Positions 1 through 12,898 are shown, numbered from the stretch's first letter. The stretch is 64,000 nt of DNA from Promethearchaeia archaeon (GCA_029856155.1 JAHQWL010000083.1:1-64000); one strand, 5' to 3'. A program made the numbers and translations. Notes: generated by a model from the letters alone, not told the origin.

Positions 1-39
1 AAATATTATCCTATAAAAATATAAGATTATTAGATAAAT

Positions 40-969
40 ATGCCAATAAACTCTCAAAAAATTGACGTTCACCATCACATTGTACCTAAAGAATATCTTA
101 CAGCTTTAGCCTCAATAGGCATCAAAAATGCTGTTGGTGAACCATTCCCTCAGTGGGATATTGAAAACACTCTTGCTTTTATGGATAGGCAAGGGATAGC
201 TATAGCAATTAATTCAATTTCTGCACCAGGTATTTATTTTGGAGATAATGATTTTACTCAAAAGCTAGCACGCAAATGTAACGAAATCTCTGCTCATATG
301 GTGAATGAATACCCAAATCGCTTTGGTGCGTTTGCTATTTTACCCCTACCAGATATAGAGGCATCCATAGTTGAATTGGAGTATGCCCTAGATACCTTAA
401 AACTAGATGGGGTGGTTCTACTTACAAATTTTGGAGGTATATACATCGGAGATGCCCATTATGATGATCTTTTTTATGAGCTAAACCGCAGGAAAGCTGT
501 GGTTTTTGTACATCCAAGTGTGCCTCCTTTAGATACATTACCCATGATAATAAAACCCGCAGTTTTAGAATTCGTTTTTGATACTACAAGAGCAATTGTT
601 AATCTTATACATAGAGGAGCAACAAAACGTTTTCCGGATATAAATTTTATATTTTCGCATGGAGGAGGAACTGTTCCCTTTATAACTTGGAGAATTACTT
701 TTGGAAATAAAAAGATAATTAATCAGTTAAAACGCTTCTATTATGATACGGCAGTGTCAGCAACCCCCTATACATTAAGTTCCCTGCTGAGTTTAGTGGA
801 ACCAACGCAAGTATTATATGGGAGTGATTATCCATTTTTACCAGAAAGGGTTGTAAAACTAATGAATGAAGGTCTTCAAAATCATAATTTTGAAAGAGAA
901 GCCCTCACGAAAATTGTCCAGCAAAATGCTGTTTCTTTATTTCCAAGGTTTAAGGAAATAATGTTTTAA
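40..969 (+). CDS. Amidohydrolase-family (ACMSD / 6-methylsalicylate decarboxylase-like) metal-dependent enzyme
   Basis: N-terminal IDVHHH metal motif, VFVHP, FSHGGGTVPF, YYDTA and LYGSDYPF motifs of Amidohydro_2. Confidence 0.85.
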   Translation: MPINSQKIDVHHHIVPKEYLTALASIGIKNAVGEPFPQWDIENTLAFMDRQGIAIAINSISAPGIYFGDNDFTQKLARKCNEISAHMVNEYPNRFGAFAILPLPDIEASIVELEYALDTLKLDGVVLLTNFGGIYIGDAHYDDLFYELNRRKAVVFVHPSVPPLDTLPMIIKPAVLEFVFDTTRAIVNLIHRGATKRFPDINFIFSHGGGTVPFITWRITFGNKKIINQLKRFYYDTAVSATPYTLSSLLSLVEPTQVLYGSDYPFLPERVVKLMNEGLQNHNFEREALTKIVQQNAVSLFPRFKEIMF

Positions 970-1009
970 AAATTTTAAAAAAATTTCAAGATTCTTTTAA
1001 TGGGGGATT

Positions 1010-1078
1010 GGAAGCGGAAAGGAGTGATAAGGTTTGAGATGAGAAAGGATTGGAGTACGTTCTAGAGTAGAATTTATT
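1010..1078 (+). repeat. Dispersed intergenic repeat, copy 1
   Basis: GGAAGCGGAAAGGAGTGATAAGGTTTGAGATGAGAAAGGATTGGAGTACGTTCTAGAGTAGAATTTATT; aligns with copies at 2581, 2946, 7011, 8428. Confidence 0.85.
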
Positions 1079-1096
1079 GCTTTAGTTTATTTAACG

Positions 1097-1759
1097 TTAA
1101 AACATGGGTACAGCGGCCACAGAAGCAGCAGCTTGTTTCCGTCCCCTTATTATTTGTTCTATAGCTTTAATTATATTCAAGATTATATATCGTGCATTAG
1201 GTGCGTAATATGGGGAATAAAGAAGTTCTTTAATCCTTTTCCTAACCTGCGTTCTAAATTTTCTAATAAAATATATTTTGAATAAACTGCATACCTTCAT
1301 TAGACTCAACAAACATAGCAATTCAATACCAGGGCTCATATTATTTATTACAACTTTTTTTATTTGGTCTAACAATAAATTCTTAATTTCTGGTTTTCCT
1401 AGATAGTATCTCCGTTTCTTAAATCCGCAAATTAGAATTCCTTGATTTTCTAATCGTTGAAAAATGTATTGAGAAAATTTTCCATAGAAATGTGAAACTC
1501 TATTTATCCAAGTTTTCAATTTTAATGGTCTTTTCGAGCGATATAAGAAAACCAGAATTTTATCTAGATATGGATATCCACTAGTATCATAATCTAAAAT
1601 TCTTGATTTTTTCCCATAAATAGAAAGTCTCCCTCTAAGATATAAATCTAAAATCATAGCTCCTGCCAATCCTAAATCTTTAGTAGCACGTCCTCTGGAA
1701 AAAATTTTACCTTTACACCCATCAAGAAGCATTAATATATACATTTCTGAAATAAGCAT
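1097..1759 (-). CDS. GOLPH3/Vps74 (GPP34) family protein
   Basis: LISEMYILMLLD start, LGLAGAMILDLYLRGRL motif, LENQGIL, Ala-rich C-terminus typical of GPP34 family. Confidence 0.75.
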   Translation of the reverse strand: MLISEMYILMLLDGCKGKIFSRGRATKDLGLAGAMILDLYLRGRLSIYGKKSRILDYDTSGYPYLDKILVFLYRSKRPLKLKTWINRVSHFYGKFSQYIFQRLENQGILICGFKKRRYYLGKPEIKNLLLDQIKKVVINNMSPGIELLCLLSLMKVCSLFKIYFIRKFRTQVRKRIKELLYSPYYAPNARYIILNIIKAIEQIIRGRKQAAASVAAVPMF

Positions 1760-1817
1760 GCTAAATTACCCTCGTTACAAATACAATTTAAATTTAAATT
1801 AAATCAAAGTGATAATA

Positions 1818-1894
1818 TTATGTTCACAATTAATTAATAAATGTACAATATTTAAATATTAGCATGTACTTATGTACATATAATGTGAACATAA
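1818..1894. promoter_or_regulatory. Operator-like inverted repeat in divergent promoter
   Basis: Perfect 11-bp inverted repeat TTATGTTCACA (1818-1828) / TGTGAACATAA (1884-1894) enclosing three ATGTAC motifs and the palindrome AATATTTAAATATT. Confidence 0.55.
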
Positions 1895-1923
1895 CAATAT
1901 AAAGATAGAGAAATAGAATTTAA

Positions 1924-2538
1924 ATGAATAATATAAATAATCAGATTGGCAAGAATAACGCATCTGAGAAGGTTCATATCCATACAACAATCCCAAAGCA
2001 AAGTAAAGAACTTATCGATAAATATTCTGATATGGAAGATAGAGAAGGGAATAAAGTTTTTGGTAAGAAAACTAAAGTCATTGAAAGAGCATTGCAGTTA
2101 CTAGATAATTACTATAATCCGAAAGAAAACGATATCGATATAATATGGTGTAGAGCCCGAAAAGAATTAAATATGGTATTAGTAGGTAAAACTACTTTTC
2201 TTTCTTACATTTCAGGGAATACAAAAAAAGCATATACAGAGAATATCGCTGTTGAAGCTGTTGAATGGTATAATGGTAAAAGAATGGAAGACATGGATTT
2301 AGAGGAATTTTTAAAGGGTTTGAAGGGTATGTGGTTTACAGCTAATTACTTTAGAAAAATTGATCTAATTAAATATGATGAGGGGGCTATACAAATGACG
2401 TTTAGTCATGATTTAACAAGAGATTATGGTAAATATTGGGCAGAGTATTTTATAACTTTATTAGAAAATAATTGGCATTGCTCTGTACAAAAATCAATAC
2501 GAAATGAATCATTTTATTTAATTATTAAGCAAGAATAA
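1924..2538 (+). CDS. Putative ribbon-helix-helix regulator with C-terminal V4R-like/ligand-binding domain
   Basis: N-terminal VHIHTTIPKQSKELID...KTKVIERALQLLD has the RHH strand-helix-helix pattern; C-terminal assignment tentative. Confidence 0.5.
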   Translation: MNNINNQIGKNNASEKVHIHTTIPKQSKELIDKYSDMEDREGNKVFGKKTKVIERALQLLDNYYNPKENDIDIIWCRARKELNMVLVGKTTFLSYISGNTKKAYTENIAVEAVEWYNGKRMEDMDLEEFLKGLKGMWFTANYFRKIDLIKYDEGAIQMTFSHDLTRDYGKYWAEYFITLLENNWHCSVQKSIRNESFYLIIKQE

Positions 2539-2580
2539 TGATTCTTATCGTTCCAATTTAGTTTTTATACCCGACCATTC

Positions 2581-2660
2581 GGAATGTGAAAAGGAGCAGT
2601 AAGGTTTGAGATGAGAAGTAATTAAAAGGAGTATGTTCTAGAGCAAAGATTTTTATTTTT
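2581..2660 (+). repeat. Dispersed intergenic repeat, copy 2
   Basis: GGAATGTGAAAAGGAGCAGTAAGGTTTGAGATGAGAA...AAGGAGTATGTTCTAGAGCAAAGATTTTTATTTTT; shares TAAGGTTTGAGATGAGAA exactly with copy 1. Confidence 0.85.
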
Positions 2661-2708
2661 CTTGTCTTTCTTCGTTCATGGTGATCTGTCTTACCGGAGA
2701 GTACGATT

Positions 2709-2933
2709 ATGAAATTGAAATTAACCCGTTCTCGGAAAGTGGGGCTGGTACTTCTTTCTGCGGGGGTGTTGTTGATATTCCAGTTTGCGATTTTTGGAGG
2801 GCTCTGGTTGGATTTTGCTGTTCCACGCGATGTTCAGGCGTGTTCTTGGATTTTGCTCTATGTTGGGATTATGTTGATACTTTGTGGGCTCTGTGTTTTT
2901 ATATGGGCAGAGTTGAAGCACAGCGACGAATAG
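2709..2933 (+). CDS. Small two-TM membrane protein (74 aa)
   Basis: Two hydrophobic helices, basic N-terminus, GGAGAG upstream; fills the interval between repeat copies 2 and 3. Confidence 0.6.
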   Translation: MKLKLTRSRKVGLVLLSAGVLLIFQFAIFGGLWLDFAVPRDVQACSWILLYVGIMLILCGLCVFIWAELKHSDE

Positions 2934-2945
2934 TAAGTAATTGTT

Positions 2946-3000
2946 GGTTTGAGGTGATAAGGGTTGGATGGAGCATTTTCTAGAACTAGATTTTACTTTT
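2946..3000 (+). repeat. Dispersed intergenic repeat, copy 3
   Basis: GGTTTGAGGTGATAAGGGTTGGATGGAGCATTTTCTAGAACTAGATTTTACTTTT. Confidence 0.75.
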
Positions 3001-3016
3001 GTTTTCTAAAAATAAA

Positions 3017-3358
3017 TTATGTCATTTGTTTAAATAACGCTTGAAATTCTTCTTTCACATCATTTAAACCTAAATTTCCAAGCAGATCAATGGATTTTTT
3101 ACTAAGAGAATAAAAAGAGCGAGGTTCAGAACGTTTGTATCCCATTCTTTTTTCATTTTTAATAAAATTTTTTTCTTTAAGGATTTTAAGATGATAATTC
3201 AGAGTATTCTCTGGAATGGAAGGTAAAAGTTCCCTTAATCGACTGAATGAGAGAGATTTTTCACTAGCTAATAAAGTTAGGAGTATCTTATATCGTGTTT
3301 TTTCTGATATGATTTCCAATTCTTTCCTCATATTTTCAAGGTTTTTGGGAGTATCCAA
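3017..3358 (-). CDS. ArsR-type winged HTH transcriptional regulator
   Basis: TRYKILLTL...LSFSRL...NTLNYHLKILKEKNFI...FYSLS pattern. Confidence 0.8.
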   Translation of the reverse strand: MDTPKNLENMRKELEIISEKTRYKILLTLLASEKSLSFSRLRELLPSIPENTLNYHLKILKEKNFIKNEKRMGYKRSEPRSFYSLSKKSIDLLGNLGLNDVKEEFQALFKQMT

Positions 3359-3531
3359 AACTTCTTCACTCTTATTATTTATATTTTATATTTCATCTAA
3401 TTCCAAATTAAATATGCAAAATCAGTTATTTAAATTTAACTCAAAATTAATTGAGTCAATTATTATTGGTATATAATAATTTATACCATAAATGAATTTC
3501 TAAATTATTTTATATTTATTGGGAGTAGAGA

Positions 3532-4023
3532 ATGCAGTTTTCACACGATCATGCGTGGGACGAATTTTTAGATGAATTTACTAATATTTTTTCAGTTTAC
3601 GATCTGAAGAAAAACAAGATCTTTATTTGTGGTTCATATAATGAAGAAACTTTCACTACTCTTCAAGAAGTACAAAAGATTGTAAATTCTATTGAGAAGA
3701 ACCTAGGGTTTTTTGAAAATGAATTTAGACGTACCCATCTTGAGAATTTAATTTTTAAATTTGATCTTATTGCTAAATTTTCGAATGAAATCATCATGAT
3801 TATAGAACACGATAAAGGAGGTCATATGATCGAAATGGGAATTATCCTCTCCTTTAGAGAATTTTCTAAAAAGACAAAGGTATTCGTATTAAGAGATGCG
3901 GAAATTACGGAAGTGCTTAAAAGAGGAGGTTTATTAAAACCTTTTTTTAAGGAAGAAGAAAGTTTATTTTACTTTGAAACTATTGACACATTAAAATCAT
4001 ATTTAAATAAGTTATATTCTTAA
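3532..4023 (+). CDS. Nucleoside 2-deoxyribosyltransferase-like (TIR/NDT fold) protein
   Basis: KIFICGS first strand; IIMIIE...GGHMIEMGII resembles the NDT GT.FE.G catalytic-Glu motif. Confidence 0.45.
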   Translation: MQFSHDHAWDEFLDEFTNIFSVYDLKKNKIFICGSYNEETFTTLQEVQKIVNSIEKNLGFFENEFRRTHLENLIFKFDLIAKFSNEIIMIIEHDKGGHMIEMGIILSFREFSKKTKVFVLRDAEITEVLKRGGLLKPFFKEEESLFYFETIDTLKSYLNKLYS

Positions 4024-4280
4024 GATTCAAAAACCGCCACTCTCAACAGCACGAGTGTGAGGTGTTGAAAGAGGAACCTAACACACATAACCCACTTAAA
4101 ATAAATAAAGAATAAAAATTCCTAACCAAATCGCCTTATACCTTATCCTCCTTTTAAAGGAAAAGGAATATTTTATTCTTATTTTATTTCTTTCAGGTTT
4201 TATAAAATAGTAGGGATAATTTTTTGGAGATCTTTTTAATAATTATCTTTTTATGAATATAGTATATAACAAATTGTATT

Positions 4281-4320
4281 AAGAAGTAAATCTCTTGAGC
4301 AGAGATTTTTACTCTTTTTA
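4281..4320 (+). repeat. Dispersed intergenic repeat, partial copy (3' half)
   Basis: AAGAAGTAAATCTCTTGAGCAGAGATTTTTACTCTTTTTA matches the 3' half of copies 2 and 4; contains perfect dyad AAATCTCT-TGAGC-AGAGATTT. Confidence 0.55.
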
Positions 4321-4382
4321 TTCTTTTTAGGTTGGGAAATAGAAATGGGTTTAAGGTATGATGTATTATTAAAAGTAATTAT

Positions 4383-4456
4383 GGGGTGGTAGTCCAGCTT
4401 GGTAGGATTCCTGGTTCGGGATCAGGAGGTCGAGGGTTCAAGTCCCTCCTACCCCA
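4383..4456 (+). tRNA. tRNA-Pro(CGG), intronless, CCA not encoded
   Basis: GGGGTGG/CTACCCC acceptor stem, CCTGG-TTCGGGA-TCAGG anticodon arm, GAGGG-TTCAAGT-CCCTC T arm. Confidence 0.95.
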
Positions 4457-4613
4457 GAGTGGAGTGTGTTTTAGACCAAAATTTTACCATTTTTAAAAAT
4501 TTTTAAATTATTATGGAAAGATTTCCGGTACTTGTCTTGATCCAACACCCACTTAGGGTGTTAGTAAACGATTATAAACAACATAAAAATTTTCGAAAAA
4601 GATTCGACGTAGA

Positions 4614-4712
4614 TTAACCGATCATTTGCGTACCTCGAATGACATAAATAACACCAATAATTATAATAACCATTGCGACCATAGCAATCAATATTCTGGC
4701 AATTTTCTTCAT
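4614..4712 (-). CDS. Putative 32-aa single-TM microprotein (MKKIARILIAMVAMVIIIIGVIYVIRGTQMIG)
   Basis: Read by hand; strong Shine-Dalgarno GGAGGTGA just upstream (4717-4724, - strand). Confidence 0.5.
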   Translation of the reverse strand: MKKIARILIAMVAMVIIIIGVIYVIRGTQMIG

Positions 4713-4962
4713 TAGATTCACCTCCTCTTTATTATAAAATTTCACAAAATAACTTTAAATATCACATTCTCTTAATGATATAAATATTTTATGCTCAATA
4801 TTTAGAACATAAGTTTCCAGTACATTAAAAAAAGCCAGAAAATTTGTAGATGTAATGTTAGATATATTAGTGTGACTTTTTCCAGCATGAACCTCAAAAT
4901 TTATAGAAATATAGAGTTATGAGCACAAAAGCTTAAAAAGAGCATTATCCTACAATTTCATT

Positions 4963-5505
4963 GTGAGACTTCGAAATTATGTGGGAGTTATTGGATTTGT
5001 GGTATTCATCGCGTTTATATCTAGTACAAGTTTATATATCCCAGCAGGCATCGTACCGATTGCTTTTTGGGAGTATCCCGTTTTCATAATAGTAGCTTTG
5101 ATTGGAACTTTCTTTCTTAATACATTTATTGAATATGGTGTTCTTTATGACATTTCGAGGTCGCATGATGTAAATAAACGAGAATTATTGCTATCTGTAA
5201 TAGTAGTGAACCTTATCACATTTCCAGCTGCCCACTTAACATTATATTTTTCATTAGCATTTACAGTAATTTTCTTATTATATTTTGGAGTAGTAATTGA
5301 AATTATGGTGATAATTATTGAGTGGATATTGTATCGATGGGAATTTCAAAAGCTTTTGTCAGAAACGCCTTCAAAAAAAACCCCCTCATCAAAAACCGTA
5401 TTATCAATATCAGCAATCATAAATATTTTATCGTTTTTAATAATTGGGATAATTGATTCTTATCTGATAAATGTCTACTTCATGTTTGGTATGAGGTATT
5501 TTTAA
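4963..5505 (+). CDS. Multi-pass membrane protein, unknown function
   Basis: About 5 hydrophobic segments; FIE..., NLIT.P and IE..V..IE motifs. Confidence 0.7.
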   Translation: MRLRNYVGVIGFVVFIAFISSTSLYIPAGIVPIAFWEYPVFIIVALIGTFFLNTFIEYGVLYDISRSHDVNKRELLLSVIVVNLITFPAAHLTLYFSLAFTVIFLLYFGVVIEIMVIIIEWILYRWEFQKLLSETPSKKTPSSKTVLSISAIINILSFLIIGIIDSYLINVYFMFGMRYF

Positions 5506-5609
5506 TACTTTTATTATAAGCATCCATTCCTCTTTTATTGCAGATTATTAAAATAGAAATTTGGGATAACATTTAACTATATAAAAATCCAGTATTTTTT
5601 TTCTTAGAT

Positions 5610-6887
5610 TTAATTTATTTCCCTAGTATAACCATGTCGCTTTATAATAATAATCAATGAAATCACAGAAATTGAGAAGCAGATAACAAATAATATGATA
5701 TAAAATGTCCATAATTTCTCATTAGTGAGTGATTTTCCATTACTTTCTGGATTTTTTAGTAAAAAATGATCAGATAATAGATAGATATTATTACTTGAGT
5801 CAATATCGATTGCTATTAAATCTTCATCATCTGAACCACCCCAAGTTAAATACCAATCAACATTTCCGGAGCTATTAATCTTTACAACGTATATGTCATA
5901 ATTATGGTGGTCTTCTGGGATGCTTATAATCGTACCAGCATAAATATTATCAAAAGAATCAAATCCTATATTAATTGACCAATAAAATTCTATATGATGT
6001 TCCCATACCCATTTTAAATCACCCAAATTATCATATTTCACTAGATATGATCTTTTTCCAACAATTATATTATCCGAAGAATCCACTGCTAGATTATAAT
6101 AACCCCTTTGTTCACTAATGATTTCCCACTTCAAAATCCCAGACTGATTATAGCATCTTATCCAATTAGAAGAATTGCCTTGTATATAATAAAAACCTGA
6201 AACTATTATATTGCTATTTGAATCAATCTCCATATCCCTTCCCTCATAATCTCCATCTATTTCTCCATAAAGATGAAACCATTGTTGATCCCCAGAACTA
6301 TTATATTTTGCTATAAATAAATCAAATTTAAATGCTTCGACTAAATCTGAAGTACCATAAATATATATGTTATCTTCTGAATCAACAGCAACATCATTAA
6401 TATCTCCATTAATTCCTCCATCCCATGTTTTTTGCCACTTTAAATCCCCAGAAGAATTGAATTTAAACAATATCATGTTTGGTACTATTGTTCGGTTTTC
6501 ATACATACTTGCTAAATATAAGTTAGATTTTGAATCCACAGCAATCGCAGAATAGTCCAATCTTAATCCCTCTAAATTGAAACTCCATAATTGATCTCCA
6601 GTACTGTTGTACTTTAATACTATTAGATCTCCATAGTACCAATAACCCATACTGGAATAGTAATTTTCAGCTGCCATGACATAAATACAATCATTTAAAT
6701 CAATAACCATGTCTAATCCAAAAAATTCAAAAGCAATTTCCCATGATTCGTCTAATTCATTAGTTTTAATCTTTAAATTATTGTTTTTATTATTCTGGTG
6801 ATCAAACCTGGATAATTTAAATTGAGGCAAAGAGCTAAAAAGCAAACTAATTACTAATCCTAATAGAATATAGGTTTTTTTTTTCAA
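5610..6887 (-). CDS. Secreted, C-terminally anchored SBBP-repeat beta-propeller protein
   Basis: Signal peptide, repeated IAVDSxxNIY / KYNSSGDxxW units, C-terminal TM helix plus basic tail. Confidence 0.85.
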   Translation of the reverse strand: MKKKTYILLGLVISLLFSSLPQFKLSRFDHQNNKNNNLKIKTNELDESWEIAFEFFGLDMVIDLNDCIYVMAAENYYSSMGYWYYGDLIVLKYNSTGDQLWSFNLEGLRLDYSAIAVDSKSNLYLASMYENRTIVPNMILFKFNSSGDLKWQKTWDGGINGDINDVAVDSEDNIYIYGTSDLVEAFKFDLFIAKYNSSGDQQWFHLYGEIDGDYEGRDMEIDSNSNIIVSGFYYIQGNSSNWIRCYNQSGILKWEIISEQRGYYNLAVDSSDNIIVGKRSYLVKYDNLGDLKWVWEHHIEFYWSINIGFDSFDNIYAGTIISIPEDHHNYDIYVVKINSSGNVDWYLTWGGSDDEDLIAIDIDSSNNIYLLSDHFLLKNPESNGKSLTNEKLWTFYIILFVICFSISVISLIIIIKRHGYTREIN

Positions 6888-7010
6888 TTTTCTAAATAGA
6901 TCTTCTATTCTCTATGAATAATTTTTACAGTTGTCCATATAATTATTTGGATTTTAAATTCATTAAATTTTGAATAAACTGACAATTTATAGATCAGACT
7001 TAGTTTGTGA

Positions 7011-7100
7011 GGGATGCGTAAAAGAATGGTAAGGTTTAATGATGGTTAATTTGAGATGAGAAAGGATGGAGGATATTCTTGAGTAGAGATTTTTTATTTT
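7011..7100 (+). repeat. Dispersed intergenic repeat, copy 4
   Basis: GGGATGCGTAAAAGAATGGTAAGGTTT...TTTGAGATGAGAAAGGATGGAGGATATTCTTGAGTAGAGATTTTTTATTTT; TTTGAGATGAGAAAGGAT identical to copy 1. Confidence 0.85.
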
Positions 7101-7198
7101 TAACTTTTTTTCTTATATAGAAAGATTTTATAAATTTCCATTCTTAATTATATACACTAGGGCATTCTAATTTTAGAAAATAATATAATTTAAAGTAG

Positions 7199-7837
7199 AT
7201 GGGTGAAATAATGTCTAAAGAAGGTAGTGAGAGAATTAGTTGGAGTACGAAAGGTGTGTGGTATGAGGCATGCGCCTCTGAGGGGTTGTGTTCATTTTAT
7301 TTTGGGAGAGACAGAGAAACTCCGTGTAAATCATTTCAGTTGTTCCAATATGATGAGGGAAAAATAGGCGATGTAGATATTAGTGGAGTCTTGGCTATTA
7401 ATGTAATTGATTTCTATTCTAATAAAGCTGCTGATGTTCTGCCTAAAGGTGGAGAGGGAGGGCTATACATTAGTGATAAAACTACTAAAGAACAGAGGAG
7501 GTATTTAGAACCTTTATTTATCAACAATATTTCTGGTGGGGTACTTTTAAAAAAGATCTTAGGAATAAAATATGTTGATATTAACTTAAGTCAAGAAGGT
7601 AATACTTACCATATTACTATGCCTTATGGAGAAATGAAATTATCCTATGCTCCAGGACTTGATGGGAAAAATCCTCAAAAACTTCAAAATTCTCTTTTTG
7701 GTATGTTCCTCTCAGATTTCAAAATTTGTAATACTCATTTTTGGAAATATAATGATTTTGGAAAAAAATGGGAGTTTAAGAATAGAAGTGGGATGATTGC
7801 GGCTTTTGACACACAGGGTAAGTCAAGGAAATTCTAG
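7199..7837 (+). CDS. DUF1326-family protein
   Basis: W..KG.WYEAC...C, DEGKIGDVDISG, LYISDK.T.EQR..LE pattern; true start may be 7211. Confidence 0.65.
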   Translation: MGEIMSKEGSERISWSTKGVWYEACASEGLCSFYFGRDRETPCKSFQLFQYDEGKIGDVDISGVLAINVIDFYSNKAADVLPKGGEGGLYISDKTTKEQRRYLEPLFINNISGGVLLKKILGIKYVDINLSQEGNTYHITMPYGEMKLSYAPGLDGKNPQKLQNSLFGMFLSDFKICNTHFWKYNDFGKKWEFKNRSGMIAAFDTQGKSRKF

Positions 7838-7908
7838 ATACTATATTTTTTCTCTTTTTTTCATAACAAATCCAAAAGAATTAGTTTCTTCAGAAATTAT
7901 TGTTTATT

Positions 7909-8394
7909 ATGAAAATTTTAATTGCATATTTTACAATGGGAGGAAGAACAAAAAAAACAGCAGAAGCTATCGCGAGTGCTCTAGCTACTCATGAAGTGAG
8001 TTTCTTTCCAATCGAAATAACCGGGAAATTTATTGAAAAGATAAAACTGTTAGACCAGTTCGAAAAAAAAGATTTTTCAAAAATAGAAACGGAATTGAAT
8101 ACTCTTCATGCGGCGAGTTATGATTTAATTATGGTCGGTATGCCCACATATGGAAATTTTCCACCAAAAGCTTTTGATGAAATCTTAGCGAGAATGGAAA
8201 ATCTTAGTGGAAAAAAAGCAATCGTATTCAATACAGCTCGTTTTACTGGTGGAAAAGCATTAGAATATATGAAAACAAAAGTCGAAGAAGCAGGAGCTGA
8301 AGTAATCGACCAAAGAAAATTTAGAAAAGTATTGTGGATCGGAACAAAAAATGCTAATAAATTTGGCAAACAACTCAATGAAAGATTAGAGTAA
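7909..8394 (+). CDS. Flavodoxin-like protein
   Basis: MKILIAYFTMGGRTKKTAEAIA FMN loop, YDLIMVGMPTY, LSGKKAIVFNT; ATG at 7909 preferred over GTG-type upstream extension of the track ORF (7900). Confidence 0.85.
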   Translation: MKILIAYFTMGGRTKKTAEAIASALATHEVSFFPIEITGKFIEKIKLLDQFEKKDFSKIETELNTLHAASYDLIMVGMPTYGNFPPKAFDEILARMENLSGKKAIVFNTARFTGGKALEYMKTKVEEAGAEVIDQRKFRKVLWIGTKNANKFGKQLNERLE

Positions 8395-8427
8395 GAATTT
8401 CAAAGCGTACGAGGATATAAAGTATCT

Positions 8428-8493
8428 GGAGCGGTAAGGATTGGGTGATTTGAGTTGAGTTAATAAGGAATATAGTTATGAGTAAAAATCTTT
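8428..8493 (+). repeat. Dispersed intergenic repeat, copy 5 (diverged)
   Basis: GGAGCGGTAAGG...TTTGAGTTGAG...AAGGAATATAGTTATGAGTAAAAATCTTT. Confidence 0.6.
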
Positions 8494-8526
8494 CAAGCAT
8501 TTGGATTTTCTAAAATAGCTTGAAAA

Positions 8527-8982
8527 TTAAGGAGTAAACGAATCAATCTGTTGAGAGAAATATCTAAAAAGGAAATCTTTTTCAGTAATCAAAATTAAGC
8601 ATAGAGTTGGTCCTGTTTTAAAACCAATTGAAATCCCACATCGCCCCGTTTCAGAGTCAGATTCACTACACCAACAGATAATTTTTAATTTGCTTTTAGT
8701 TAAATATTTCTGAATTGATAGATTAATTTCACGATAATTATCATGGGGAGTAAAATTCATTAAATCTTCGGATTCTTTTTCATTTTCTTTAATTGCATCT
8801 ATTTCTTCTTTAGCTACATCGCCAAATACACCAATGTCAAAAATGTCATTATTTTTTTTTACTTGGGTAAGAGCAAAATCTTCAAAATGCATATCTCCAA
8901 TAATAATATATTCATGCTTTGCAAGTTGTTCTTGAATTTTCTTATTCAAATCCCACATCATGTCTTCCAAAGTCTCTAACAT
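8527..8982 (-). CDS. Hypothetical protein
   Basis: 151-aa ORF with GAGGAG RBS upstream; no family recognised. Confidence 0.6.
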   Translation of the reverse strand: MLETLEDMMWDLNKKIQEQLAKHEYIIIGDMHFEDFALTQVKKNNDIFDIGVFGDVAKEEIDAIKENEKESEDLMNFTPHDNYREINLSIQKYLTKSKLKIICWCSESDSETGRCGISIGFKTGPTLCLILITEKDFLFRYFSQQIDSFTP

Positions 8983-9242
8983 AAACTCCTCTAAGAACTA
9001 TTTATATTTAAATAAAAAGGCTATAAATTATAGTGATCTAAATAATATTTCAATTATAATCATAAAATATAAGGATGGTGTAGAGAACCACGGGATCAGA
9101 TTTTTAATGATAGCTAAAGCAATAGTAGATAAAATATTTCAAGTATTTAGAGTTGTACTAATAGTTTATGAGCCAATCATATTTATAGCATTAATCTATT
9201 TAGATTAAGGATATTCCTATTACTAATGTGTTTGCGTAACCT

Positions 9243-9300
9243 GATTTGAATTAAAATGAGAGAGAGTAAGTTATTGACCACAGATTTTGTTTTTATTTTA
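9243..9300 (+). repeat. Dispersed intergenic repeat, highly degenerate copy
   Basis: GATTTGAA...ATGAGAGAGAGTAAGTTATTGACCACAGATTTTGTTTTTATTT keeps the order of repeat blocks. Confidence 0.35.
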
Positions 9301-9343
9301 ATCTCATAATATTGACAAAATTATAATACACAACAATTTCAAA

Positions 9344-9488
9344 TTATACACACTAATAAAAAACATCGTAAAATAATATTAATGGTCTCCATCTCTTTAT
9401 AAACAGCATTTTTCATAATTTTTTGGATCGAAATATTTAAATACTTATACACACTAATGTGTATTAGAGAAAAAAAAATATACACACT
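9344..9488 (+). promoter_or_regulatory. Promoter with repeated TTATACACACTAAT operator-like boxes
   Basis: Exact 14-mer at 9344-9357 and 9445-9458, third TATACACACT ending at 9488; dyad ATACAC-N6-GTGTAT (9447-9464) directly after TATA-like TTTAAATA (9436-9443). Confidence 0.55.
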
Positions 9489-9522
9489 CAAAAAAAAAAA
9501 TTAAAAAATGGAGGTAAAAAAA

Positions 9523-9606
9523 ATGGCAAATAATTACGAATATTACAAGAAAATGAAAACCCAGTTTGACGCAAATAATGTGTTTTTCGGTAAAATGTAT
9601 TATTAA
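9523..9606 (+). CDS. Putative 27-aa peptide MANNYEYYKKMKTQFDANNVFFGKMYY
   Basis: Read by hand; GGAGGT RBS at 9510-9515, own TATA box upstream, oligo-T terminator downstream. Confidence 0.6.
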   Translation: MANNYEYYKKMKTQFDANNVFFGKMYY

Positions 9607-9613
9607 ATACAAA

Positions 9614-9635
9614 TTTTTTTCTTTTTTCTTTTTTT
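9614..9635 (+). terminator. Archaeal oligo-T terminator
   Basis: TTTTTTTCTTTTTTCTTTTTTT right after the peptide ORF stop. Confidence 0.5.
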
Positions 9636-9775
9636 AAAATTGTTAATTATTTTTTAGTATCAGTACTTCTTTTGGTTTAATTTGTAGAAATAATAAGATG
9701 AAAATTAAATTAACTCCATGTATTGACTAATTTTTCACACTGTTTTTAATTAAATATTATCCTTGTTATATTAAA

Positions 9776-10009
9776 TTGATGACATCCAATTTTATAATAA
9801 AGGATCAGGAATCATTTGAACCTGTTAGTATAGTAAAATGTTATTATATGAAAGATAATAAAAAAACAGTATTTGGAAGATTACCAAATGGAAAGGTGAT
9901 TTGTATTCCAAAAACAACGATTCAATCTGAGTTCTCAAGAGAAAGAAATCTCTTACAAGACTTGGTTATCGATGATTGGATATTAAGAAAGTTTGGTTTG
10001 ATGATGTGA
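9776..10009 (+). CDS. Small protein paralogous to the C-terminal domain of 19948-20664
   Basis: IPKTTI...IDDWILRK vs IPKSRI...IDDWILKK. Confidence 0.7.
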   Translation: MMTSNFIIKDQESFEPVSIVKCYYMKDNKKTVFGRLPNGKVICIPKTTIQSEFSRERNLLQDLVIDDWILRKFGLMM

Positions 10010-10031
10010 AGAAAATAGTTTTTCGAGCTTT

Positions 10032-10910
10032 CTAGTCAGCTAATTTCTTCTTGATTTGAGCAACTAATTTTTTAGAATCTTCAGAATCAGTTATAAATTC
10101 AATTTCGTCTGGGGATGATATACCCACTCCTAGTTCTACTGCTCTTTTAATTTGTTCTTGCTCAAAAATCGAGCCTTTAGAAACTTCTGGAGTAGTTCCT
10201 AAAATCCGTAATATTGCTACTCCAACAGCATCTATGGCTACCTTGTCAGTTCCAGCAATAAACACATTTGCTTCTTTTCGGGTACCTTCCATTGGTCCAC
10301 GATCTACAAAACTTAGAATACCGTCCATGATAATTAAATCAGGTTTGTATACAGAGTTTATTTCAGCAACCATAACCCTTTGATTCTTAGATGAATGTAA
10401 TTCTCCCATATTTTTTTTAGACACTATTCCTACTGCGTTCTTTAGTGATAAAGTAAAGTGACCACCGTACATATGTGTTTTTAAGCAACAAGTTTCAACA
10501 ATGCATTCTGCATCATCATAAATTTTGGCAAAAAGGAATCCATCTTTCCAATGAAAACCCTCAGTATTTTTAAGCACATATTCTTCTCTAGGTATTTGAG
10601 TTAAGTCAATTATCTTAAAATCTAATTCATTCGCTAATTCATATAATCCTTTTTTCTTAAAAGTTTTAGCTGTATTTACTGGACCACTACGTTCAGCAAC
10701 AGTTATTGATTTAGCCCCCATTTCTTTTAACTTTGTAATCAGTTGCTTAATAGTCACCATTGAGCTCGAAGCTGGAGGAGGATCAGCTGTATTGAAATTA
10801 GGTTTGAATATTACATGTTTATCTTTAATGGGATTAATTCCTAATAATTCTAAGGATTTATTTACACCATAAACTCGATCTTTTGTAGCAATAACTGCGA
10901 TTTTGGTCAT
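10032..10910 (-). CDS. DUF362-family protein
   Basis: VIFKPN, LKTH, TLSLKN, DLIIMDGI, VAIDAV motifs; start placed at MTKIAV (GGTGA RBS) rather than 10964. Confidence 0.85.
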   Translation of the reverse strand: MTKIAVIATKDRVYGVNKSLELLGINPIKDKHVIFKPNFNTADPPPASSSMVTIKQLITKLKEMGAKSITVAERSGPVNTAKTFKKKGLYELANELDFKIIDLTQIPREEYVLKNTEGFHWKDGFLFAKIYDDAECIVETCCLKTHMYGGHFTLSLKNAVGIVSKKNMGELHSSKNQRVMVAEINSVYKPDLIIMDGILSFVDRGPMEGTRKEANVFIAGTDKVAIDAVGVAILRILGTTPEVSKGSIFEQEQIKRAVELGVGISSPDEIEFITDSEDSKKLVAQIKKKLAD

Positions 10911-11119
10911 CTTAATCACCATAAATGAGTATAAAACTAGATCTAAAATATTAAAATTTACCATTATAAAAATTAAGCTAGAGTAAGAGAGATTACATTA
11001 TATTATAATGTAAGGTGGGTATAGTCCAGTATTTATCCAAAGGTCCAATTAAGGTTCCGGATATAAAACCAAAAATATAATCCTCGCTTAATTATTTTTA
11101 AACACTTAGAGGTGATTTT

Positions 11120-11737
11120 ATGAAAGAATACTATGATGAAGTAAAGAATATGGATGTGATAGAAATGAGTGCTGAGGAACTTACCATTGAAGAGGTAGTA
11201 GAACCTGAACAAAAGGAAACTTCAGATTCATTTAAAGCATTTGTGTCTGAATATCCTAAATTTGTTGGGGGATTTGTTTCTATAATTGGAGTCTTAATTG
11301 GAATAGGAATATTAATTTCTGTTAATAGAATTGATCTTCTACTAGGGGTTAATATCGTTTTCATTACAATTGCCATTATTGGAGAGATAGTTGCGAAAAG
11401 CAGAGAATCAAAAAGTAAAATACAATATAAAGTTCCAACTTATGGTATTGTTGCTTTAGTTTTTAATATTCTAGCATTGATAGTGATAATAGGTGTTGAT
11501 GTACACGGATTAATGTCATTCTCCATTTGGAACAATCTTTATGCAGCTCCCTTAGTTTTTATAGCAATAGGCTGCACTTTAGGAGGATTTTATTATGAAC
11601 ATGACTATAGACCGGGTTTAGCTGTTTTAGGGCTTTTCCTTGGCAGTACCCTATTATTGATAAGCTTTTGGCAAGTTCTATTAGTTATTCTCATTATTAT
11701 TGGAGTTATTGCATATATCGCTAATGGTGGAGATTAA
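11120..11737 (+). CDS. Multi-pass membrane protein
   Basis: GAGGTGA RBS; acidic N-terminus followed by about 6 TM helices. Confidence 0.75.
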   Translation: MKEYYDEVKNMDVIEMSAEELTIEEVVEPEQKETSDSFKAFVSEYPKFVGGFVSIIGVLIGIGILISVNRIDLLLGVNIVFITIAIIGEIVAKSRESKSKIQYKVPTYGIVALVFNILALIVIIGVDVHGLMSFSIWNNLYAAPLVFIAIGCTLGGFYYEHDYRPGLAVLGLFLGSTLLLISFWQVLLVILIIIGVIAYIANGGD

Positions 11738-11925
11738 TTTAGTAATTTTATATTTTTTTTTCTTCTTCTTTATGCATTTCAATGAATTTGAAAGAATTTT
11801 TAACTAATTAAGTTTAAAGCTTAAATAGGGAAAAGACATAATAAAGCATTGAAAAGAAAAATCGAGAAAATAATTTAAAAATCAAATTTTTAAACAAAAT
11901 CAATTATAGTAGGAGAAATACAATA

Positions 11926-12306
11926 ATGAAAGATTTAACTGTTATTTTGAAAAATAAACCAGGAACTTTAGCGGATATGGGTGCGGCATTAGGTAAAAAT
12001 GGCATCAATATGGAAGGATTATGTGCGTTTCCCCAAAAGGGTGAAGGTGTCGTTCATATTTTAGTTGAAGATGAGACAACAACTCAATGGGCACTCGAAG
12101 ATGCAGGTTTTGAAGTCCGGGCTATTCGTGATGTACTAGTTATAGATATTGCAAATGTTATAGGAAAACCTGGTACGGGGGGAAAATTGGCTCGAAAAAT
12201 TGGTAATGCCGGAGTTAATATTGACTTAATCTATTTAGCTGAAAATAATAGAATCGTACTGGGAGTTGATAACTTAGAAAAGGCTCGTGCAGCTTTAGAG
12301 AGATAA
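11926..12306 (+). CDS. Tandem ACT-domain amino-acid-binding protein
   Basis: LKNKPGTLA...GINM and GKPG...AGVNIDLIY ACT motifs. Confidence 0.85.
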   Translation: MKDLTVILKNKPGTLADMGAALGKNGINMEGLCAFPQKGEGVVHILVEDETTTQWALEDAGFEVRAIRDVLVIDIANVIGKPGTGGKLARKIGNAGVNIDLIYLAENNRIVLGVDNLEKARAALER

Positions 12307-12380
12307 TGACAAGAATGAACTGTAAAATATTTAAGAATTATAATTTTATTTTTTTTTTTTAATTTATTAAAATAAGAAGG

Positions 12381-12872
12381 CTATAAATAGGGAAGACTTT
12401 TTATTTCCATTGATGTTCCAGTAGCCTTAATTAATTTTTGTAATTCTCCTCCAGAAATTTGTAAGGTTTCTGTGTTTACATTCGGATGGCAACAAATTTC
12501 TTTCGCATTCCACACATTTTCGTCTATTATGAACGTCACTTTATCGTTGATATCATTGACTAATCCAATTGGGGAAACTGCACCGGGAGTAATGCCTAAT
12601 GTTTCTGAAAGCTCTTCAGGTCCCGCAAAGCGAATTTTTGGAGCACCTATCATTTTACGAAATTGATTTAGATCCAATCGTTTTTCATGAGGAATTGTAA
12701 CTAAATATAACTGCCCAGATTTCGTATTTTTAAGAAGTAAATTCTTACAATGAGTCCCGGGGATGTGTCCGCAATGAATTTTAGCCTCGGGAACCGTAAA
12801 AACTGCCGGGTGAGTGTGTAAGATATATTGAATGTTATTGTTATCTAACCATTCCTTCAATGAATCTTCCAT
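12381..12872 (-). CDS. YbaK/ProXp (PrdX-like) aminoacyl-tRNA deacylase
   Basis: HPAVFT, KNLLLK, LGITPGAVSPIGL, HPNVNT motifs. Confidence 0.9.
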   Translation of the reverse strand: MEDSLKEWLDNNNIQYILHTHPAVFTVPEAKIHCGHIPGTHCKNLLLKNTKSGQLYLVTIPHEKRLDLNQFRKMIGAPKIRFAGPEELSETLGITPGAVSPIGLVNDINDKVTFIIDENVWNAKEICCHPNVNTETLQISGGELQKLIKATGTSMEIKSLPYL

Positions 12873-12898
12873 ATTGCCTCAATTTAAAATTTTAATAT

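Follow-up and report, generated by a model that had tools for sequence, protein, structure and literature searches.

What sequence divides the accessory genes at the left end of this 64,000-nt stretch of a Promethearchaeia genome (GCA_029856155.1, JAHQWL010000083.1; the window, on contig C83) into modules, and where does it come from? An earlier note on the same DNA described a same-strand repeat between the modules and proposed an integron-like acquisition array. We identify the repeat as the 3′ trailer of the 23S rRNA gene, to which long copies add the last ~150 nt of the 23S sequence. In these Lokiarchaeia-type Asgard archaea, the end of the rRNA gene acts as a landing pad at which small blocks of accessory genes accumulate and are shuffled. 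We found no published description of 23S-trailer cassette arrays.

A clustered, co-oriented repeat separates the modules

A profile was built from the five + strand copies that the earlier note had placed at 1010, 2581, 2946, 7011 and 8428. Run with nhmmer against the 4.1-Mb genome, it recovered all five as strong matches (E about 1e-11 to 1e-17; Table 1). Only three other strong copies were detected in the genome, all on the − strand at one end of contig C34 (186–299, 2080–2180 and 3620–3731), and the remaining ~54 kb of the window contained none, as the note had stated. The genome-wide scan confirms clustering and strand bias, with strong copies confined to the window and the C34 end, on one strand in each. 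Partial copies suspected near 4281 and 9243 were also recovered, with E values that are weak genome-wide but with a context that makes them credible; a third degenerate copy, immediately after the tRNA gene, had been overlooked. The copy at 4292–4319 is credible because it lies ~200 nt past a match to the 23S 3′ end (4034–4078; a 45-nt stretch that is 96% identical to the 23S part of a long copy), and because the same order of repeat, tRNA-Pro and repeat recurs in two other species, represented by genomes G005 and G027. The ortholog of the overlooked copy is a short copy at 8887–8921 of L024 in G005, and orthologs of the copy at 7011–7108 precede the DUF1326 module in both of these genomes.

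Table 1 Repeat copies, modules and flank in the window, in order of position
Feature	Position	Strand	Evidence
Amidohydrolase, 309 aa, end of a three-gene module common to G005 and G001	40–969	+	Pfam PF04909; synteny
23S-trailer repeat, 5′-truncated, core GGAGTACGTTCTAGAGT	1004–1092	+	nhmmer E 6e-13; CM match; alignment
GPP34/GOLPH3-like gene (1097–1759, −) and divergent 204-aa gene (1924–2538, +)	1097–2538		Pfam PF05719
23S-trailer repeat, core equal to consensus	2581–2669	+	nhmmer E 1.8e-16; core mismatches 0/16
Single-gene module, 74-aa membrane protein ORF (2709–2933)	2670–2923	+	G+C
23S-trailer repeat, 5′-truncated, overlapping the stop of the 74-aa ORF	2924–3008	+	nhmmer E 1e-13
Winged-helix regulator (3017–3358, −) and divergent 163-aa gene (3532–4023, +)	3017–4023		Pfam HTH_20/DUF7347; families F4, F3
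Relic of 23S rRNA 3′ end, orphan piece of a degenerate long repeat	4030–4085	+	Sequence match
Degenerate repeat core with oligo-T tail, 5′ of tRNA-Pro	4292–4319	+	nhmmer E 9.6 genome-wide
tRNA-Pro(CGG), own module between two degenerate repeats	4382–4457	+	ARAGORN; Rfam
Degenerate repeat core immediately 3′ of tRNA	4460–4494	+	nhmmer E 3.5 genome-wide; orthologous short copy in G005
180-aa protein (+) and 425-aa SBBP beta-propeller protein (−)	4963–6887		Pfam; families F29, F30
Near full-length trailer repeat	7011–7108	+	nhmmer E 7.5e-16; alignment
DUF1326 protein (212 aa) and flavodoxin-like protein (164 aa)	7199–8394	+	Pfam; families F18, F8
Oldest-looking strong repeat copy, six core mismatches	8407–8503	+	nhmmer E 1.5e-11; 46% identity to genuine trailer
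Degenerate last repeat copy, bordering the conserved flank	9241–9300	+	nhmmer E 1.5 genome-wide
Start of conserved right flank: DUF362, ACT, YbaK-type editing domain, amidase	10032–14392		Pfam; synteny

Module content and order vary among related species, in agreement with the proposed gain, loss and shuffling of modules. The GPP34/GOLPH3-like module is confined to this species among those compared, and both of its ORFs are singletons in clustering. Its single-gene neighbor has a G+C content of 0.449, compared with 30% genome-wide, which ranks it in the top 0.3% of 300-nt windows, and no relative of the 74-aa membrane protein was found in the genome or the fetched loci. The winged-helix regulator and its 163-aa partner are common to eight genomes, the DUF1326/flavodoxin-like module is repeat-flanked in three species, and the 180-aa/SBBP module occurs twice in G008, at other positions. 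A second tRNA-Pro(CGG) is present elsewhere in the genome. The right flank bounds the array in several species, with synteny across G005, G027, G003, G011 and G017.

Within an array, all repeats lie on one strand at a median spacing of about 1.2 kb, and many cassettes are tiny (0.3–1.5 kb), with single ORFs tightly packed between repeats. Copies usually begin 0–100 nt past a same-strand stop codon and are also found after opposite-strand genes; around 81–83 repeats, neighboring genes are of mixed orientation (upstream 44 + vs 32 −, downstream 43 + vs 35 −). The convergent, tandem and divergent settings described earlier are consistent with the ORF map. Such clustered, co-oriented module boundaries, flanked by genes of mixed orientation, support the view that the repeats are not promoters or terminators of particular genes.

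The repeat derives from the 3′ end of pre-23S rRNA

In alignment, the window copies are 5′-truncated versions of a ~250-nt unit, purine-rich and almost without C on the + strand, and every copy terminates in an oligo-T run. Alignments of full-length copies cover both the trailer and ~150 nt from the 3′ end of 23S. On C34, Rfam places an archaeal LSU rRNA at 3761–7141 (−), ending 30 nt short of the copy at 3620–3731. The earlier note missed both this identity and the rRNA gene as the left anchor. Several independent long copies begin at nearly one 23S position, near TGAGTATGCGAG, which hints at a preferred site.

The conserved core, GGAGTATGTTCTWGAGC, is predicted by cofolding to be the 3′ strand of a bulged pre-23S processing helix, pairing with the 23S leader, which contains the complementary GCTCATAAGAACATACTCC. 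The predicted leader–trailer cofold has an energy of −120 kcal/mol in G000, where a 12-bp helix, a bulge, a 4-bp helix and a loop are followed by a further helix, and of −142 kcal/mol in a second species (L186). The genome holds only one leader-type partner, and among the copies only the genuine one is predicted to form the long leader–trailer helix with its bulged motif. A 17-nt core is nearly invariant in an alignment of ~90 copies from ~25 genomes, and the part that it is predicted to play in the processing helix already explains it. Within the repeat itself, RNAalifold predicted no hairpin or consensus structure (0 pairs, eight copies), and no Rfam family matched it.

Arrays start at the 23S gene and decay away from it

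On its left, the array is anchored at the 23S rRNA gene. The window would hold the distal half of an array that starts immediately behind the single assembled 23S gene and ends, about 10 kb into the window, at the conserved housekeeping flank; the halves lie on separate contigs, and at least two genes known from relatives are missing between C34 and C83. An array built on this repeat follows the 23S gene in at least seven species assemblies and on two metagenome contigs, with starts at the LSU rRNA 3′ end in G001, G005, G008, G011, G024 and G027 and on contigs L186 and L193. The model of this repeat found copies in 28 of 36 genomes of the same genus and in none of 24 from other genera. A closed genome of another genus shows the same layout with an unrelated trailer: three 5′-truncated, same-strand copies of its own trailer lie within the 23 kb downstream of its 23S gene.

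The arrays are also polar. ORFs adjoining the 23S gene are nearly all clustering singletons, and shared modules lie distally, beside the conserved flank. The farther a copy ranks from the 23S gene, the more mismatches its core tends to have (Spearman 0.42), a noisy age gradient whose p value of 0.002 is overstated because copies of different species are partly orthologous. Distal copies retain 46–69% identity to the genuine trailer, with the core kept better, at 76–90%, which could reflect either selection on a recombinase site or invariance of the source sequence. Predicted pairing with the leader, best in the copy adjoining the 23S gene, is strong for the two copies nearest the gene (−75 and −88 vs −95 kcal/mol) and weaker for distal copies, down to shuffle level; the copy at 2924–3008 would be a relic, since its pairing is at that level.

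Cassettes are shuffled, with breakpoints in the repeat

Single-gene cassettes of families F55 and F56 lie between repeats at differing positions in three or four genomes. At the strain level, the breaks between variants fall within a repeat or at its end, where the earlier note had expected breakpoints. Window positions 7105–9151 are matched at 100% identity by JGI contig L157, which differs upstream from the oligo-T run on; its upstream 127-mer has two further continuations, on contigs C58 and C64 of this genome. L198 matches C34 at 99.2% identity as far as the 5′ half of a repeat, beyond which the 3′ half and the cassette both differ. The crossovers in these two cases differ in position (mid-repeat in L198, the oligo-T run at 7105 in L157), the boundaries of one cassette vary between genomes, and 5′ truncation points vary among copies. 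Such variability in crossover and truncation is expected for homology-driven, not site-specific, events.

Array contigs carry no detectable recombinase

The earlier note suggested that a recombinase might lie to the left, but it is the rRNA gene that lies there. Searches with PF00589 returned one XerA-like tyrosine recombinase (311 aa) per genome, on C81 in this genome, and none on the array contigs of G000, G001, G005, G008, G011 and G017. No serine recombinase was found in this genome, and no recombinase domain appeared among the tested flank and cargo proteins (Pfam, with PHROGs for proximal cargo). Matches to the repeat core in viral contigs were no better than chance. A trans-acting integrase could have gone unseen because MAGs are incomplete and plasmids and viruses are usually unbinned.

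Two known kinds of element do not match these copies. Xer-dependent dif modules have 28-bp dyad sites in alternating orientation, whereas the copies here are all direct, with a core in which no two arms form a dyad about a spacer. A MITE or other non-autonomous transposon is contradicted by the lack, in the region, of an inverted-repeat pair matching the copies or their ends, and by strong genome copies that form one array and are not dispersed.

How the arrays may grow

We favor, with some reserve, a process in which recombination between homologous rRNA-trailer sequences adds cassettes in a polar manner and shuffles them. The copies are displaced pre-23S 3′ ends, each comprising the 3′ strand of the processing helix and an oligo-T terminator, with the last ~150 nt of 23S in long ones; ‘scars of insertion’, a phrase close to one in the earlier note, comes near the truth. 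Foreign or relocated DNA would enter the 23S end or trailer, and each insertion would have to keep a working 23S end beside the gene. The previous trailer, shortened to a varying extent on its 5′ side, would be displaced downstream and decay, and the array would extend mainly at the rRNA-gene end. Copies could then serve as portable homology, with crossovers at differing repeat positions deleting, swapping and moving cassettes within and between lineages. The reaction would presumably fall to the cell's general machinery for homologous recombination, which would use the highly conserved 23S gene as its anchor while the other end is joined illegitimately, a homology-facilitated event and not the work of a dedicated site-specific integrase.

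The small, regular, single-ORF cassettes nevertheless resemble a dedicated cassette system more than the products of sporadic illegitimate recombination. An unrecognised or unbinned recombinase (XerA-like, of a novel family, or a plasmid or virus integrase) might use the trailer core as an attachment site and insert and excise circular cassettes, making the system integron-like in function. Several features fit: dense co-oriented single-ORF arrays (on L193, eight of nine main ORFs are co-oriented, spaced 0.4–1.4 kb apart), the near-invariant core, polar growth as by insertion at attI, and the same cassettes recurring at different places. Moreover, integrons have been reported in Archaea (bioRxiv 10.1101/2022.02.06.479319). 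We still rate such a system as possible but unlikely, given the lack of an integrase on the array contigs of six genomes and among tested cargo and flank proteins, a repeat with neither hairpin nor dyad, variable crossovers and cassette boundaries, chance-level core matches in viral contigs, and a core accounted for by the predicted processing helix. Of the integron-like acquisition array first proposed, the co-oriented array and variable cassette order stand, whereas an adjacent integrase and a hairpin are missing. More broadly, Lokiarchaeia and other archaea might practice dedicated gene capture with the pre-23S processing trailer as attachment site, through an unrecognised recombinase family or a mechanism coupled to rRNA processing or termination. 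This idea is doubtful and, we think, rather unlikely; if true, it would give archaea a functional equivalent of the integron that is founded on an rRNA gene and supplies Asgard genomes with accessory genes such as those for surface proteins, regulators, small GTPases and defense.

Two further explanations do without cassette capture as the primary process. Copies could be kept for an RNA-level role, as terminators or insulators against rRNA read-through, alternative partners of the 23S leader, or small RNAs, with modularity secondary. Their terminal oligo-T runs are of the type that terminates archaeal transcription, most copies closely follow a same-strand stop codon, and the two proximal ones are predicted to pair well with the leader. 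We consider this role very unlikely, however, given that distal pairing falls to shuffle level as cores decay with distance, that there is one leader-type partner and neither a consensus structure nor an Rfam family, that some copies follow opposite-strand genes, and that 5′-truncated 23S fragments and cassette shuffling would be left unexplained. It seems extremely improbable that rRNA genes were duplicated in tandem and then lost their bodies, leaving the copies behind. Two or three 23S genes are indeed present in other genera of the order, and the ~150 nt of 23S in long copies would suit such an origin, but the genes found in the intervals are unrelated ones and vary from one species to the next, the arrays contain no 5′ or internal 23S fragments, only 3′ ends truncated at many points, and relics of lost operons would be expected to be dispersed, not stacked behind the surviving gene.

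Comparison with known systems

Integrated elements accrete in tandem at the 3′ ends of tRNA and tmRNA genes, and She and colleagues reportedly described archaeal ‘gene capture’ by integrases in 2001. As in such accretion, the direct repeats here copy the 3′ part of a stable-RNA gene that stays intact, share their 3′ end and vary in 5′ extent, and successive insertions pile up in one orientation beside the gene while older copies decay. Here, by contrast, the target is not a tRNA but the 23S rRNA end with its processing trailer; neither an integrase gene nor a split int fragment was found at any border searched; units are tiny, comprising one to five genes, none of them for replication or from a virus; and junctions, in the two cases available, do not fall at one fixed position.

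Polar accretion through trailer homology, the process that we favor, would resemble homology-facilitated illegitimate recombination, by which de Vries and Wackernagel are said to have seen, in 2002, foreign DNA with one homologous anchor integrate in naturally transformable bacteria in the laboratory. One conserved anchor, the 23S gene, and a microhomology join would insert donor DNA without a dedicated enzyme and could leave a truncated copy of the recipient 23S end and trailer. Unlike in those experiments, we only infer the process here, and we know of no report that it builds ordered arrays.

Archaeal pre-rRNA stems contain bulge-helix-bulge motifs that are cut by EndA and joined by RtcB (PMC7038931, PMC12918454). 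The genuine trailer is predicted to be the 3′ strand of such a stem, with a long leader–trailer helix and a bulged 4-bp segment at the core, although the predicted fold is not a textbook 3-4-3 motif. Distal copies, lacking a leader partner and having lost pairing, would be relics and not processing sites.

Compared with sedentary chromosomal integrons of the Vibrio type and archaeal integrons, the arrays have no IntI beside them and no attC hairpin with R and L boxes, their repeats come from an rRNA trailer, many modules are multi-gene or on the opposite strand, and crossover points vary. Nevertheless, both kinds of array combine a fixed platform with polar addition of numerous small cassettes, which are mostly poor in promoters, have unknown functions and alternate with co-oriented repeats of ~60–140 bp, and in both cassette order is shuffled among relatives.

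Results

Repeat copies in the genome

Repeat scanning and direct reading identified a sequence of ~90 nt common to the window sites at which an earlier note had placed a repeat between gene modules. An nhmmer profile built from the five copies of that note, run against the whole genome (4.1 Mb, 104 contigs, 30% G+C), recovered all five among eight strong copies (E 1e-11 to 1e-23) and no other copy with E < 0.6, confirming the repeat far beyond chance. The remaining strong copies lie on a second contig of this genome, C34. Both partial copies that had been proposed are weak genome-wide, and one additional weak copy was recovered. Near the start of a further contig, C53, at ~1050, there is a match with one mismatch to the repeat core, a conserved segment of ~17 nt. 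Window copy 1004 has this variant too, and the C53 match may be an allelic counterpart of the part of the array around that copy.

Coordinates of the repeat copies and of the 23S rRNA gene in the source genome
Feature	Location	Strand	Basis and remarks
Repeat copy	window 1004-1092	+	nhmmer
Repeat copy	window 2581-2669	+	nhmmer
Repeat copy	window 2924-3008	+	nhmmer
Repeat copy	window 7011-7108	+	nhmmer
Repeat copy	window 8407-8503	+	nhmmer
Repeat copy	C34 186-299	-	nhmmer; near contig start
Repeat copy	C34 2080-2180	-	nhmmer; near contig start
Repeat copy, trailer of 23S gene	C34 3620-3731	-	nhmmer
23S rRNA gene	C34 3761-7141	-	Rfam; 3381 nt
Weak repeat copy	window 9241-9300		E 1.5 genome-wide
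Weak repeat copy	window 4292-4319		E 9.6 genome-wide
Weak repeat copy, additional	window 4460-4494		genome-wide nhmmer

The ORF map bears out the placement of copies in convergent, tandem and divergent gaps, and the orientations of genes neighboring the repeat are mixed (44/32 upstream, 43/35 downstream), so that a promoter or terminator role for particular genes does not fit, as had been argued. Other readings were rejected. For a small RNA or riboswitch, there was no Rfam match with E up to 1 in positions 1-12000 besides tRNA, and no consensus structure; for a micro-ORF, linker length differences are not multiples of three and reading reveals in-frame stops; C/D-box sRNAs and replication-origin boxes were matters of motif resemblance only, dropped once the rRNA origin was clear.

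Origin of the repeat in the 23S rRNA gene

A copy in a relative is preceded by a G+C-rich stretch, from which BLAST led to full-length copies of ~250 nt; the window copies are 5'-truncated versions of this unit, and its G+C-rich part is the 3' end of archaeal large-subunit (LSU) rRNA (Rfam). The copy directly behind the 23S gene on C34 is the trailer of that gene. No 16S gene occurs within 16 kb of this 23S gene, indicating that the rRNA genes are unlinked here. Upstream, the 23S leader holds GCTCATAAGAACATACTCC, the complement of the most conserved repeat segment, GGAGTATGTTCTAGAGC, and it is the only leader-type partner in the genome. Leader and trailer cofold at -120 kcal/mol in this genome, where the core is predicted to form a 12-bp helix followed by a bulge (AUA of the leader opposite A of the trailer), a GCUC:GAGC helix of 4 bp, a small loop and another helix. 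In a second species (metagenome contig L186), the cofold energy is -142 kcal/mol. A bulged processing stem is the expectation for archaeal pre-23S rRNA (PMC7038931, PMC12918454), and the leader-trailer helix, as modeled, is this expected stem; we do not claim a canonical 3-4-3 BHB. An rRNA-trailer origin also explains why the + strand of the repeat is purine-rich, has no self-structure and matches no Rfam family.

A relic of the 23S 3' end itself (45 nt, 96%) survives at window 4034-4078, ~200 nt ahead of the degenerate core at 4292. Three independent long copies (L029 13350-13605, L026 9090-9362 and, on the reverse strand, L193 ~5270-5531) begin at nearly the same place in the 23S gene, ~160 nt before its end and near TGAGTATGCGAG, which has the heptamer GAGTATG in common with the trailer core. 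This recurring start may mark a preferred join, or may be chance.

Layout, spread and decay of the arrays

A sequence-only covariance model detected the repeat in 28 of the 36 same-genus genomes and in none of the 24 genomes from other genera to which it was applied. The records are MAGs assigned to 'Promethearchaeota' (Lokiarchaeia-type Asgard), with marine sediment and salt marsh as their sources. Within each genome, copies are grouped on one or a few contigs and on a single strand, which is the clustering and strand bias that a profile scan had been proposed to look for. Arrays of six further species start at an LSU rRNA 3' end that itself runs off the contig, which is why arrays are found at contig ends. 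Two metagenome contigs have the same 23S-anchored layout, one with nine copies within 8.2 kb directly behind the 23S gene. The other boundary is a conserved flank encoding an ACT-domain protein, a YbaK-type editing domain, an amidase, a Ras-family GTPase and a GYD protein; in one relative (G005), the full interval from 23S gene to flank lies on one contig, spanning ~12 kb with nine copies. The array of the present genome is split: the 23S gene is on C34, together with two cassettes and the first three copies, the window holds the distal part, and at least a two-gene stretch known in relatives is missing between them. Exact-protein matches fall mostly on contigs collinear with the window, and two proteins had no record in this look-up.

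In a closed genome of another genus, G050, the 23S trailer is unrelated to the one here, and three 5'-truncated copies of it follow on one strand, at distances of 4.7, 19.8 and 23.2 kb downstream from the 23S gene, all ending at the same oligo-T run; three other closed genomes have no such trailer copies within 20 kb of the 23S gene. Two single-contig 'chromosome' records (G006 and G023; for example, CP070831.1) contain no 23S rRNA gene in an Rfam search and thus are not truly closed at the rRNA locus, so they say nothing on anchoring and their 'dispersed' copies are not interpretable. One repeat alignment row from these records begins with N.

The arrays are polar. In all-against-all clustering, ORFs adjoining the 23S gene are nearly all singletons; distal modules (a winged-helix regulator with a 163-aa gene, tRNA-Pro, and DUF1326 with a flavodoxin) are common to several species, in the same order and adjoining the flank. 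The farther a copy ranks from the 23S gene, the more core mismatches it has (Spearman 0.42, p 0.002); partial orthology among distal copies makes this p value overstated. Within the source genome, the trailer directly behind the 23S gene is the genuine one; identity to it drops from 0.69 to 0.46, and pairing energy with the 23S leader drops from -95 kcal/mol to shuffle level, marking distal copies as relics rather than working processing sites. The best-pairing copy is the one adjoining the 23S gene.

Cargo and strain variants

Cargo in the window comprises an amidohydrolase, a GPP34/GOLPH3-like protein, a winged-helix regulator, an SBBP propeller protein, DUF1326, a flavodoxin-like protein and small membrane proteins. 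The module for one of these, of 74 aa (2670-2923), has 45% G+C against 30% for the genome, placing it in the top 0.3% of 300-nt windows; no relative was found in the genome or in any fetched array, and a reading of it as an rRNA fragment or structured RNA was rejected (no genome similarity; fold z-score -0.7). Other arrays carry LRR proteins, a Ras-family GTPase and large surface proteins with beta-helix and Ig domains. The G050 array (C1 86108-109432; L168, L173) encodes defense-like proteins (AAA_16 with an Mrr-type nuclease domain, PRTase-CE and an HD-domain protein), two LRR proteins and an LVIVD-repeat protein. Ras-family small GTPases are Asgard 'eukaryotic signature' genes; one forms a single repeat-flanked cassette, the first behind the 23S gene, in G008 (L026 689-1372), and such signature genes may travel through these arrays.

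Three or four genomes have single-gene cassettes of two ORF families, F55 (164 aa) and F56 (73-80 aa), between repeats at differing ranks and with differing neighbors; counted from the 23S gene, F56 ranks first in L193 and eighth in G008. Strain comparison for module shuffling with breakpoints in the repeat, which the earlier note had proposed, yielded two cases. JGI contig L157 is 100% identical to window 7105-9151, and upstream of this the two diverge exactly from the oligo-T run at the end of repeat 7011-7108. Two contigs of the source genome itself, C58 and C64, both start with the 127-mer found upstream in L157 and continue differently, so that one junction has three right-hand neighbors in the sampled populations. 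Over the first 128 nt of C58 and C64, the shared 127-mer consists of a gene end and the minimal repeat remnant AGTTCGCAAGGATTTTTTTT, followed by divergence; it is in a different sample that this 127-mer leads into window 7105, and the fork is an assembly-graph mark of array strain variants. In the second case, JGI contig L198 is 99.2% identical to C34 across a 501-aa cassette and the 5' half of a long repeat, then switches mid-repeat to a different 3' half and an F56-type cassette, at a point where C34 instead runs on into a copy, 95% identical, of the 88-aa gene that it already carries. Together, these breakpoints indicate that repeats can be hybrids and that crossover points vary between events. 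This copy, just past the long repeat at C34 (L001) 1-145, matches 2312-2456 at 95%. The latter stretch is the 5' part of the 88-aa gene, which lies two cassettes upstream; the array thus contains a duplicated cassette gene, the probable cause of the contig break.

Discussion

All copies share a 3' end at an oligo-T run, and their 5' truncation points vary (model start positions 2 to 79). With the best-pairing copy at the gene, this is the arrangement expected for insertion into the end of a stable-RNA gene with restoration of that end, a pattern known for tRNA genes. The array is real, and the enzyme is a matter of inference, with a dedicated recombinase as the rival. A trans-acting, site-specific recombinase that inserts cassettes would suit the regular, integron-like density of single-ORF cassettes, the well-kept repeat core and the one 5' boundary that recurs in long copies. 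We regard it as a serious rival and the less likely reading, given variable junctions and searches that returned no recombinase on the array contigs. The enzyme gene that had been suggested beside the array was not there: each genome has one XerA-like tyrosine recombinase, never on an array contig and in this genome at ~1.2-2.1 kb of contig C81; no serine recombinase was found in this genome; and Pfam and PHROGs searches detected none in the flank or cargo tested. Viral or plasmid carriers were likewise rejected, as the 17-mer has nine matches in IMG/VR, which is the estimated chance level, four of them being one phage coding sequence without wider similarity to the repeat, and no virus contig carries the repeat site. 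Nor is there a viral signature in proximal cargo, for which PHROGs gave only an LRR protein family.

The lack of a detected enzyme and the variable junctions favor homology-driven events. We infer that repeat copies recombine with each other and that donor DNA would be imported with the highly conserved 23S gene as its anchor; its opposite end would be joined illegitimately, leaving the recipient's truncated 23S end or trailer behind.

Mobile DNA classically lands in stable-RNA genes; the cases known are tRNA and tmRNA genes at which integrases act. Across an Asgard genus, and in a second genus with an unrelated trailer, this role falls to the end of the large-subunit rRNA gene, where small cassettes, up to 13 or more of them, form ordered arrays with no integrase visible. 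Full-text searches of the literature turned up no account of 23S-anchored arrays. Our contribution consists of core-leader pairing, polarity statistics, two strain-level breakpoints inside repeats, the second genus in a closed genome and the recombinase survey. The arrays bear on gene gain and exchange in the closest prokaryotic relatives of eukaryotes, with cargo including GOLPH3-like, Ras-family and LRR proteins, and they account for Asgard MAG contigs breaking at the 23S locus. Stacked old rRNA trailers form a dated record from which the sequence of acquisition events can be read. A dedicated enzyme, should there be one, would constitute a new recombination system with a defined, conserved target.

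The integron-like array first proposed was partly right: the repeat and its role as a module boundary stand, and the defining features of an integron do not. The array works like a sedentary integron but has no integrase and no attC hairpin. It also works like tandem island accretion at tRNA genes, from which it differs in having no integrase and no fixed crossover.
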